Assembly: GCF_003334765.1 (NCBI RefSeq) | Contig: NZ_QOWT01000001.1 | Reading direction: 5' to 3' (one strand) | DNA length: 64,000 bases | DNA from: Escherichia coli | GTDB taxonomy: Bacteria; Pseudomonadota; Gammaproteobacteria; Enterobacterales; Enterobacteriaceae | Shown here: in pieces, positions 9,580 to 42,912 of the stretch | Layout of the letters: every line of letters begins with the position of its first letter | How positions within the stretch are numbered: the first letter of the stretch is position 1 | The notes under the pieces: model-generated | What the model saw: the letters and a program-made list of their open reading frames with translations, nothing else | What the model was told of the DNA's origin: nothing | Database searches by the model: none | Translations under genes and position numbers: made by a program

Positions 9580-9717
9580 CGTGTAATGGCTGCATGAAAT
9601 AAACAATAAAATATAAATAACATTATCAGCCTGCTGACGGCTTGAAGAGAGTCACAGTATCTTGTGCAACATTATTGGAAAGAGTGAGGGGCGAGGTAGC
9701 GAAGCGGAAAAATGTTA

Positions 9718-9822
9718 AAAAAAAGCCCATCGTGGGAGATGGGCAAAGACTACACACAGCAATTCGTTGTTTCACTCAGGGGATTTCCATGCTTATAAAT
9801 CAATATGTTGATTTATAACCGT
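9718..9822 (-). ncRNA. rprA: RprA small regulatory RNA (Hfq-dependent activator of rpoS translation)
   Basis: Plus strand reads AAAAAAAAGCCCATCGTGGGAGATGGGCAAAGACTACACACAGCAATTCGTTGTTTCACTCAGGGGATTTCCATGCTTATAAATCAATATGTTGATTTATAACCGT, the reverse complement of the RprA sequence as I remember it, including the terminator hairpin and U-tail. Confidence 0.8.
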
Positions 9823-15071: not shown

Positions 15072-15260
15072 ATGTCTACTCAACTTGATCCCACCCAGCT
15101 GGCCATTGAATTTTTACGCCGTGACCAGAGCAATCTTTCACCTGCCCAATATCTCAAACGTCTGAAACAACTAGAACTTGAATTTGCTGACCTGCTTACT
15201 CTCTCTTCTGCTGAATTAAAAGAAGAAATCTACTTTGCCTGGCGTCTGGGCGTGCATTGA
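15072..15260 (+). CDS. ydiH: Small protein of unknown function
   Basis: ATG at 15072 gives the 62-aa MSTQLDPTQLAIEFLRRDQSNLSPAQYLKRLKQLELEFADLL…; the track ORF is longer from an upstream start. Confidence 0.7.
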   Translation: MSTQLDPTQLAIEFLRRDQSNLSPAQYLKRLKQLELEFADLLTLSSAELKEEIYFAWRLGVH

Positions 15261-15461
15261 TCCTGACTTAATGCCGCAAGTTCGCCAAATCGACCTGGAT
15301 TAACCTCCGTCCAGGTTCGATGACCTTCTTAATACTGCTTATCTACCGCCTGATATTGTTCAAAAATAATACTAATCGCAGTTTGTGTTAAAACGGCGGG
15401 TTAGCTTTATGAGATTATTCTTATCGCCCCTTCAAGAGCTAAGCCACTGAGAGTGCCGGAG

Positions 15462-15529
15462 ATAAGCGCCGGATGGGGTAGAAACCCTTAAGCCTGTGTC
15501 GCACAGACTTAAGGGTTTTCTTATTTCTG
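15462..15529 (+). ncRNA. Candidate small RNA (possibly RydB) or intrinsic terminator; extent and strand uncertain
   Basis: Perfect 11-bp stem AAACCCTTAAG (15483-15493) / CTTAAGGGTTT (15509-15519) followed by a T-rich tract. RydB is reported in the ydiH-sufA intergenic region, but I could not confirm its sequence from memory. Confidence 0.3.
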
Positions 15530-15747
15530 AACGCTGCACTTTTTTACCTATCTCTTAAATAGTCATTTTCAATACAACTTTTTCTTTTTCATCACAGCCT
15601 TAATGCTCCTTAGATAATAACCATTATCTAACAATGAGATACCTAATTCTTAGCGTGCCTGTTAACCCACACATCAGGGTCTATGCTTATTAAAAGCAGG
15701 CAAAAAGCATGTTTTACGGTAAAGCCCCTGCGTTTGCTGGGTTGAAC

Positions 15748-15764
15748 TGATAATCATTATCACT
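15748..15764. promoter_or_regulatory. Fur box in the suf operon promoter
   Basis: TGATAATCATTATCACT about 45 bp upstream of the sufA ATG, matching the GATAATGATAATCATTATC Fur consensus; Fur repression of suf is established. Confidence 0.7.
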
Positions 15765-15807: not shown

Positions 15808-16176
15808 ATGGACATGCATTCAGGAACCTTTAACCCACAAGATTTCGCCTGGCAAGGCTTAACGCTGACACCCGCAGCGGCGATACACATCCGTGAGCTG
15901 GTGGCAAAGCAGCCGGGTATGGTCGGCGTGCGCTTAGGCGTGAAGCAAACGGGCTGCGCGGGCTTTGGCTATGTGCTCGACAGTGTTAGCGAGCCGGACA
16001 AAGACGATCTGCTGTTTGAACACGACGGCGCGAAGCTGTTTGTCCCGCTGCAAGCGATGCCGTTTATTGATGGCACGGAAGTCGATTTCGTTCGTGAAGG
16101 ACTTAATCAGATATTCAAATTTCACAACCCTAAAGCCCAGAATGAATGTGGCTGTGGCGAAAGCTTTGGGGTATAG
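15808..16176 (+). CDS. sufA: Fe-S cluster carrier, A-type
   Basis: 122-aa ORF ending in the C-terminal CGCGESF motif. Confidence 0.92.
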
Positions 16177-42359: not shown

Positions 42360-42402
42360 TCCATTTCACTCCAGACCCTAACTTCAGCTCCTGCAAAATC
42401 GC

Positions 42403-42418
42403 AAGGTAAACGTTTGCC
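42403..42418. promoter_or_regulatory. PurR operator (PUR box) in the purR leader
   Basis: Minus-strand reading GGCAAACGTTTACCTT matches the PUR-box core (ACGCAAACGTTTTCNT); purR autoregulation is established. Confidence 0.55.
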
Positions 42419-42657
42419 TTTACACACCTTACGCACAACAAAAGTGTTGCGGTACGCCGGAAAAACGACACGGAGCGTCAGGAAGGGGTCAATGGCCAGT
42501 ACGCAAATAGTGTAAGCGTGGAATTTTGGCCGATCTTGACGAAAAGGGGAAGTGGTAAAAACACTTATCATTATAAATGACGGGAGATTTTTTCATCACA
42601 GTGTGTAAAAATGCGTAATATCACTTTTTGTGTGGTAATAAAAAAGGAGAAAACTTG

Positions 42658-42747
42658 ATGAGCACCGACCTTAAATTTTCACTGGTAACAACGATTATCG
42701 TCCTCGGTTTGATCGTAGCCGTGGGTTTGACTGCCGCGCTGCACTGA
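42658..42747 (+). CDS. ynhF: Small single-TM membrane protein (29 aa)
   Basis: ATG…TGA encodes MSTDLKFSLVTTIIVLGLIVAVGLTAALH, preceded by a GGAGA RBS; below the ORF-track size cut-off. Confidence 0.7.
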   Translation: MSTDLKFSLVTTIIVLGLIVAVGLTAALH

Positions 42748-42912
42748 TTTCCTCTCGAGGGAGCGCGTTCTCCCTCGCATCTCCTTCCTGTTTGTTAGCA
42801 AAATGGCAAAAGTGTTTTCTCTTTTTGTTATTTTCATTTTTTTGTGATTGCTGTCATGCTTTCGCCACTTTAATGAATATCGCGTAATGACGCGAAGAGG
42901 TGGAGATAAGGC

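Follow-up and report, generated by a model that had tools for sequence, protein, structure and literature searches.

M1 RNA, 6S RNA, tmRNA and the leuX tRNA carry in their precursors a terminator hairpin which is absent from the mature RNA. The 3′ maturation of small stable RNAs and of some tRNAs reportedly proceeds by such terminator removal, as Li, Pandit and Deutscher are said to have described in 1998 and Mohanty and Kushner in 2010. The sRNAs of enterobacteria that resemble SgrS end in a G-C-closed stem-loop, flanked upstream by an A tract and downstream by a U tract, which lies directly behind a short structured RNA gene and is conserved with covariation, and the Term-seq 3′ end of SgrS is the last U of the U tract. 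Steady-state 3′ ends normally lie just after stable stems, and these hairpins protect them. For RNase III acting on intramolecular stems, a preference in vivo for G-C pairs between the staggered cuts is reported by Altuvia et al. 2018 (PMC6212723).

In the literature RydB is an sRNA for which neither direct targets nor regulators are known, and it is reported to lower rpoS expression. It is classed as Hfq-independent in one paper, and a published palindrome survey gives rydB with a predicted Rho-independent terminator. Here we analyzed a hairpin behind RydB in a stretch of 64,000 nt of Escherichia coli DNA (contig NZ_QOWT01000001.1), which is called the window in this text and to which all positions refer. 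The hairpin has the SgrS-like layout in common, with the G-C-closed stem-loop, both tracts, the position directly behind a short structured RNA gene and the covariation. It differs in its much longer stem of 17–18 bp, and whereas SgrS ends at its U tract, the dominant RydB end lies upstream, inside the 5′ arm. The hairpin is of a kind already known, a catalogued E. coli sRNA locus being re-identified here together with the terminator behind it; that it acts as the intrinsic (Rho-independent) terminator of the rydB transcription unit is, in our judgment, probable. The features of the locus are as follows.

15072–15260, + strand: ydiH coding sequence, 62 aa, upstream neighbour (K-12 annotation b1685 mapped; listed open reading frame)
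15289–15322, + strand: stem-loop near the ydiH stop, AUCGACCUGGA...UCCAGGUUCGAU, which may end or protect the ydiH transcript (from the fold, which is weak, z = −2.05)
15410–15418, + strand: predicted extended −10 promoter of rydB, TG-n-GATTAT (invariant columns in 26 orthologs)
15426–15486, + strand: RydB, mature form, 61 nt (Rfam RF00118 and dominant Term-seq 3′ end)
15481–15519, + strand: hairpin with a 12-bp outer stem, a C/A mismatch, a 5-bp inner stem and a UCG loop; G-C-closed core at 15485–15515 (folds; 26 orthologs)
15516–15528, + strand: U-rich tract UUUUCUUAUUUCU, its first four U paired with the upstream GAAA (tail score −5.05; 26 orthologs)
15546–15575, + strand: conserved block CCTATCTCTTAAATAGTCATTTTCAATACA, about 20 nt past the U tract (conservation from Escherichia to Citrobacter)
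15749–15761, + strand: Fur-box core GATAATCATTATC of the suf promoter (exact match, unique in the window, 0 expected by chance)
15808–16176, + strand: sufA coding sequence, downstream neighbour (open reading frame list and K-12 annotation)

RydB in the spacer between ydiH and sufA

The gene order in the window is ydiJ, menI, ydiH, a spacer of 547 nt and sufABCD, with the + strand used throughout. The spacer is 100% identical to that of K-12 MG1655 (a K-12 position equals 1780194 minus the window position), is present in 5,422 of 5,426 complete E. coli genomes and occurs at a median of one place per genome. The ydiH stop at 15260 precedes 15462 by 202 nt and the stem by 221 nt, and the sufA ATG at 15808 lies 279 nt after 15529, which agrees with the distances of 200 and 280 bp given for the segment 15462–15529 in a sequence-only reading of this DNA.

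The Rfam model of RydB (RF00118) matched 15426–15486 on the + strand with 81.6 bits (E = 9e-18; model positions 1–61; gathering score 50), and no other Rfam family gave a match in the spacer even at E ≤ 1. The gene is b4430 of K-12, also named tpe7 or IS082, on the same strand and at the same locus, and its sequence is identical here. The closing helix of RydB joins CCCC at 15427–15430 with GGGG at 15475–15478, the invariant hairpin CCGG-AGAUAAGCG-CCGG stands at 15456–15472, and the 3′ tail is UAGAAACC. The match of the model reaches 15486 and thereby takes in no more than 6 nt of the downstream hairpin, at the start of its 5′ arm. The sequence-only reading had proposed that this hairpin could be RydB itself and had named a covariance-model search as the check. 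RydB does lie in this spacer, and on this strand. The match overlaps the segment 15462–15529 by 25 nt and the stem by 6 nt, so that the outcome which that reading had named as refuting, a match without overlap, did not occur. The identification of the hairpin with the body of the sRNA was not borne out, as both the model (15426–15486) and the mapped 3′ end at 15486 leave most of the hairpin outside.

Further Rfam matches in the window were RprA (9715–9822, − strand, 118.5 bits), STnc550 (42360–42750, + strand, 396.5 bits), two tRNA genes and HPnc0260. The 3′ part of the HPnc0260 match is antisense to one of the two tRNAs, and the match is probably driven by tRNA sequence; the spans listed for these further matches also include 33614–33768 (−) and 33487–33649 (+). 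A 35-aa open reading frame on the minus strand, at 15432–15539, is antisense to the conserved structured RNA.

Just upstream of RydB the columns TG 15410–15411, A15414 and T15418 are invariant in the 26 orthologs described below. A15414 is position 2 and T15418 position 6 of the −10 hexamer, and the pattern is diagnostic for an extended −10 promoter; a good −35 hexamer is not present upstream of it. The spacing from this −10 would place the rydB start at about 15426, where the Rfam model begins. The K-12 annotation of rydB, 1764713–1764780 (−), corresponds to 15414–15481 in the window. Its 5′ end falls within the conserved −10 hexamer and its 3′ end is 5 nt short of the Term-seq end, and the K-12/RefSeq coordinates look imprecise at both ends. 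Since promoter conservation and Term-seq agree, rydB is taken here as 15426–15486 rather than 15414–15481.

A block AATCGCAGTTTGTGTTAAAACGGCG at 15374–15398, which is 15–40 nt upstream of the rydB −10, is kept from Escherichia to Salmonella, Silvania and Leclercia (CGCAaTTTGTGTTAAAA); it may be the site of a regulator or resemble an UP element. A 13-codon open reading frame from the ATG at 15408 was also considered and was set aside; it begins upstream of the predicted start, and in some Citrobacter and Salmonella sequences an indel of 1 nt destroys its frame.

The curated Term-seq table of Adams et al. 2021 (PMC7815308) gives the rydB 3′ end at K-12 1764708 (−), with 2.17 million and 4.14 million reads in two growth-condition tabs as compared with 0.08–0.18 million for lpp. 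The table was calibrated on its aspV, aspU and sgrS rows, in which the end corresponds to position 51 of each printed 61-mer, and the rydB end then corresponds to C15486 in the window. This dominant end lies 8 nt 3′ of the closing helix GGGG and 6 nt into the 5′ arm of the hairpin, and it is also the end of the Rfam model. It follows from this end that the abundant RydB is about 61 nt long and is without most of the hairpin; the 3′-end mapping which the sequence-only reading had named as a second check excludes most of the hairpin from RydB in the same manner. The position 15486 is the sole entry at the locus in the curated table (PMC7815308), which keeps the strongest peak per 100 bp, so that a weaker peak at about 15522–15527 would go unlisted. 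The missing U-tract peak does not count against termination, because peaks within 100 bp collapse to one. TERMITe has no rydB entry. In Salmonella the rydB annotation is 105 nt long, which corresponds to the distance from the promoter to the U tract, 100 nt in S. diarizonae.

The hairpin in orthologs and in the RydB family

The segment 15481–15519 (+) reads GAAACCCUUAAG-C-CUGUG-UCG-CACAG-A-CUUAAGGGUUUU. In its outer stem, AAACCCUUAAG (15482–15492) forms 11 Watson-Crick pairs with CUUAAGGGUUU (15508–15518), and G15481–U15519 is the twelfth pair, by which the outer stem spans 15481–15492 with 15508–15519. The inner stem CUGUG/CACAG joins 15494–15498 with 15502–15506 around the loop UCG, and the C15493/A15507 mismatch stands between the two stems. 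The 3′ flank counted from G15515 is UUUUCUUAUUUCU, in which the U tract is interrupted (UUUUCUUAU). These pairings confirm the perfect 11-bp stem, the nested inner hairpin of 5 bp and the T-rich 3′ flank noticed by the sequence-only reading.

RNAfold gave −26.4 kcal/mol for 15462–15529 (z = −3.87), and 1 of 200 shuffles folded equally well. Over the whole window and both strands, equally stable folds were found in 0.16% of the 45-nt windows, at about 20 distinct sites. The G-C-closed core folds with −16.5 kcal/mol, a value that falls to −21.3 kcal/mol once the A/U extension is included. The TransTermHP-type T-tail score behind the last G-C pair is −5.05, a value reached at 0.12% of window positions, as against −3.9 on the minus strand. 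Taken together, the fold and the U tract are well beyond chance. The DNA palindrome folds as well on the minus strand (−26.2 vs −24.4 kcal/mol), and it is therefore the U tract and the orientation of RydB that assign the hairpin to a strand. G-U pairs were considered as a proof of the strand and were dropped, for the C/A mismatch turns into a G-U pair on the minus strand. A simple promoter and terminator scan called neither the hairpin nor a rydB promoter on the + strand. The hairpin was probably missed due to the internal mismatch and the interrupted T run, and we judged such a scan to be too rigid for a mismatched stem and for an extended −10 promoter. The arm sequence was found in the window at the hairpin only and nowhere else.

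The search for related loci was done with an exact 18-mer of the invariant RydB hairpin in one genome per species and gave 120 loci, about 30 of which are syntenic with menI, ydiH or sufA. An alignment was made of 26 syntenic orthologs from Escherichia, Citrobacter, Salmonella, Silvania and Leclercia. The hairpin begins 2–3 nt 3′ of the RydB closing helix in all 26, and in all of them an invariant TTTT is followed by a T-rich run. In this alignment 93.6% of the cells are paired, as compared with 28–61% in slid-register controls, and 6 of 18 pairs, most of them in the inner stem, show changes in both partners. Inner stem, loop length and flanks vary, with the pairing of the inner stem kept; the outer stem AACCCUUAAG/CUUAAGGGUU (15482–15492, 15508–15518) is almost invariant over the five genera. 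In this alignment the conservation of the outer stem exceeds the need of pairing alone and also the usual constraint on a terminator stem. A different hairpin of 17–20 bp occupies the same position in C. koseri, two other Citrobacter and Pseudenterobacter; the U tract of this second type is weaker.

The neighbouring genes change in several of these genomes. In many Citrobacter ydiH and rydB are about 1.85 kb apart (with a LysR regulator gene and an MBL-fold gene in C. werkmanii, one genome examined), and the hairpin still follows RydB by 2–3 nt. Salmonella and C. braakii have 1.5–2 kb between rydB and sufA, and there also the hairpin stays with RydB. In S. enterica subsp. diarizonae (locus L117, 6374–7720, − strand) the gene of a 448-aa transporter is convergent on rydB and ends 14 nt past the U tract; the hairpin may serve this gene as well, the U tract being poor on that strand.

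The insertion sequence IS1397 targets REP palindromes, or palindromic units. A copy of this element (IS3 family) is present in the hairpin 5′ arm in the E. coli soil isolate SC434 (NZ_LR778142.1; locus L122, 1560–3002). Its target corresponds to 15483–15485 in the window, with a 3-bp duplication AAC, and it splits the RydB core from the hairpin.

About 100 of the 120 loci are RydB-like and come from many genera of Enterobacterales, with two or more copies in several genomes. When 20 family copies were re-scanned with Rfam, 19 were above the gathering score and belong to the known RydB family, and one Acerihabitans copy had 48.4 against the required 50. The family is multi-copy across Enterobacterales, with members in Pantoea, Erwinia, Rouxiella, Serratia, Sodalis-like genomes, Atlantibacter, Kosakonia, Mangrovibacter and others (drawn from loci L002–L121; examples are L020/L021, L028/L029, L033/L034, L055/L056, L061/L062 and L083). 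In the family the closing helix covaries and the middle hairpin is variable; the CCGG-AGAUAAGCG-CCGG hairpin and the AGAGCUAA junction are invariant. Most copies have their own unrelated G+C-rich hairpin and a U tract 10–75 nt after the core. The stems have 16–20 bp in the syntenic orthologs, for both hairpin types, and 6–13 bp in the other family members. The genes downstream of the copies are heterogeneous (suf, phosphatase, LysR regulator, osmC and others), and recurrent contexts are positions upstream of a PP2-type phosphatase gene, of a LysR regulator gene and of osmC. One RydB copy of Atlantibacter adjoins the SraC/RyeA-SdsR locus.

Another conserved structured element, AGCGCAUCGGC...CCUCCUCG-nnn-GAGGGAGUACAGCAAAGGUUGUCGGUGCGCU, follows a RydB copy and its terminator in Sodalis-like genomes (L006, L040, L041, L083, L088 and L115), about 50–115 nt past the core. 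The one locus scanned for it, L006, gave no Rfam match for this element at E ≤ 1. A convergent open reading frame of about 25 codons with a strong ribosome-binding site (e.g. MQTNDITFLAALAVIIIGFVSFMYA) is present in five of these six loci and is missing in L115, and the element may be the terminator or the 3′ UTR of this small reading frame.

Function of the hairpin and competing explanations

Several properties of an intrinsic terminator are found at the locus, namely a stable G+C-closed stem-loop, a U-rich tract of about 7–9 nt directly 3′ of it on the transcribed strand, and a conserved structure closing a transcription unit of the same orientation. That the hairpin moves together with RydB, that the family shares the layout and that ydiH has end elements of its own fits a free-standing sRNA gene with its own terminator. 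Synteny breaks and the family copies disfavour a ydiH terminator, a suf leader and a DNA-level repeat. If the hairpin is the terminator of rydB, transcription would start from the conserved extended −10 promoter at about 15426 and pass the structured RydB core of 53 nt, after which the polymerase would meet the long stem-loop closed by three G-C pairs and then the U tract. Release would occur at about 15522–15527 and would leave a precursor of about 100 nt. The classification of RydB as Hfq-independent would mean that the terminator is not needed as an Hfq-binding module.

The CCTATCTCTTAAATAGTCATTTTCAATACA block behind the U tract is presumably the upstream OxyR site of Psuf, reported near −236 to −197. 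From the Fur-box core at 15749–15761, together with the known organization of Psuf, the suf promoter is placed in that region, and the hairpin therefore lies upstream of the suf promoter region and outside the suf 5′ UTR. The description of the surroundings of the hairpin as a long suf leader in the sequence-only reading was for this reason imprecise. Because rydB is very highly expressed and the suf activator site follows on the same strand after about 20 nt, the terminator may insulate the suf operon from rydB read-through and from residual ydiH transcripts.

The most serious competitor of rydB termination is that the hairpin serves as an element of processing or stability, such as an RNase III entry site, in a longer or Rho-stopped transcript and does not terminate at all. 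The mature RydB end inside the stem would fit this well, as would the stems of 16–20 bp in both syntenic hairpin types against 6–13 bp in other family members, the weak U tract of the second type and an outer-stem sequence more invariant than pairing needs. We consider it unlikely nonetheless, because the T run after the stem is invariant in the 26 orthologs of the first type and scores very high, the suf upstream block begins 20 nt on and leaves little room for another end-forming signal, and most family members have textbook terminators at the same relative position. Only slightly less credit, though still little, is given to the proposal that the hairpin primarily ends the menI–ydiH transcript and that RydB merely lies in its 3′ UTR; a ydiH terminator was among the possibilities named in the sequence-only reading. 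The hairpin is on the same strand, 221 nt past the ydiH stop, and some read-through to it is plausible in E. coli because the ydiH-proximal hairpin at 15289–15322 is weak (z = −2.05) and poor in its U tract. Against it, a hairpin, classical terminator or REP directly 3′ of ydiH is found in Escherichia, C. amalonaticus, Pseudenterobacter and Salmonella; in many Citrobacter ydiH is set apart from rydB by an insertion, with two unrelated genes in C. werkmanii, and the hairpin stays by RydB; RydB has its own conserved extended −10; and family copies with no ydiH nearby also have their own terminators. Ending ydiH transcripts can be a secondary role at best.

It is very improbable that RydB and the hairpin together form a cis-acting leader or attenuator, like a riboswitch, which controls read-through into sufA. 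Such a device would indeed consist of a conserved structured core and then a terminator on the strand of sufA, and some family copies stand upstream of stress genes such as osmC. The Fur-box core, and hence the suf promoter, is nevertheless 230 nt downstream of the hairpin, and the linkage is broken in Salmonella and C. braakii, where rydB and sufA are 1.5–2 kb apart, a distance which in S. diarizonae includes the convergent transporter gene. The heterogeneous genes downstream of the family copies speak against it also, and no conserved alternative pairing between the core and a terminator arm was seen across the two hairpin types. An antiterminator pairing of GGGG at 15475–15478 with CCC at 15485–15487 was tried and rejected, being impossible in the second type. 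Even less can be said for the palindrome acting as DNA, as a protein-binding site or REP-like element. The palindrome CTTAAG is part of its almost invariant outer arms, the fold of the minus strand is as stable, and IS1397 has entered the 5′ arm in one soil isolate; but the sequence is single-copy per genome and is not repeated in the window, while REP and BIME elements are multi-copy. The inner stem varies and still pairs and the loop length varies, as an RNA stem predicts, and in some species a different palindrome takes the same position relative to RydB.

Probable removal of the terminator and its meaning for RydB

The reading of the hairpin as the rydB terminator has to account for a dominant 3′ end inside a stem of −21 kcal/mol. 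Since stable hairpins protect 3′ ends, a dedicated removal step would be needed, by which the terminator is taken away after transcription and the dominant RydB ending at C15486 is left. Candidates for this step are RNase III, which would cut the stem of 17–18 bp, and another endonuclease followed by 3′ exonucleolytic trimming that halts at the RydB core, in the manner of M1 RNA, 6S RNA and tmRNA. By the stem geometry, cuts after C15486 and after G15515 would leave the canonical 3′ overhang of 2 nt. The pairs between these putative cuts, 15485–15515 and 15486–15514, are both C-G and are invariant in the 26 orthologs. The geometry of an RNase III substrate, a long intramolecular duplex with G-C pairs between staggered cuts, is present, and the RNase III route is compatible with the modelled stem, the route by endonuclease and trimming being equally possible. 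With the RNase III stem substrates of PMC6212723, RydB has in common the stem of 17–18 bp and the C-G pairs between the cuts; it differs from them in having one mapped end only. In the literature searched, neither a link between RydB and RNase III nor a discussion of RydB 3′ processing was found.

Compared with M1 RNA, 6S RNA, tmRNA and the leuX tRNA, RydB is likewise abundant and structured, and its mature end comes a few nt past the closing helix. It differs from them in that no single-stranded spacer is present and the end lies within the stem. We put forward only tentatively that RydB is an abundant terminator-less RNA made by obligatory excision of an unusually long hairpin, for which a double cut by RNase III at C15486 and G15515 would be the likeliest means, and that the outer stem AACCCUUAAG/CUUAAGGGUU is conserved as a determinant of processing and not only as a termination signal. 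Such excision, if true, would explain the non-Hfq-like behaviour of RydB along with the conserved sequence of the stem.

The 3′ end signal of RydB is among the strongest in the cell; no target of this RNA is known, and its end falls inside a strong stem. A strong terminator 20 nt before the suf upstream activator site would be a tidy insulation of an active gene from a tightly repressed operon. If the proposed excision is true, RydB would join the maturation pathways of the stable RNAs rather than the classical Hfq-type sRNAs, and this may give a handle on an orphan RNA family which is multi-copy in many Enterobacterales.
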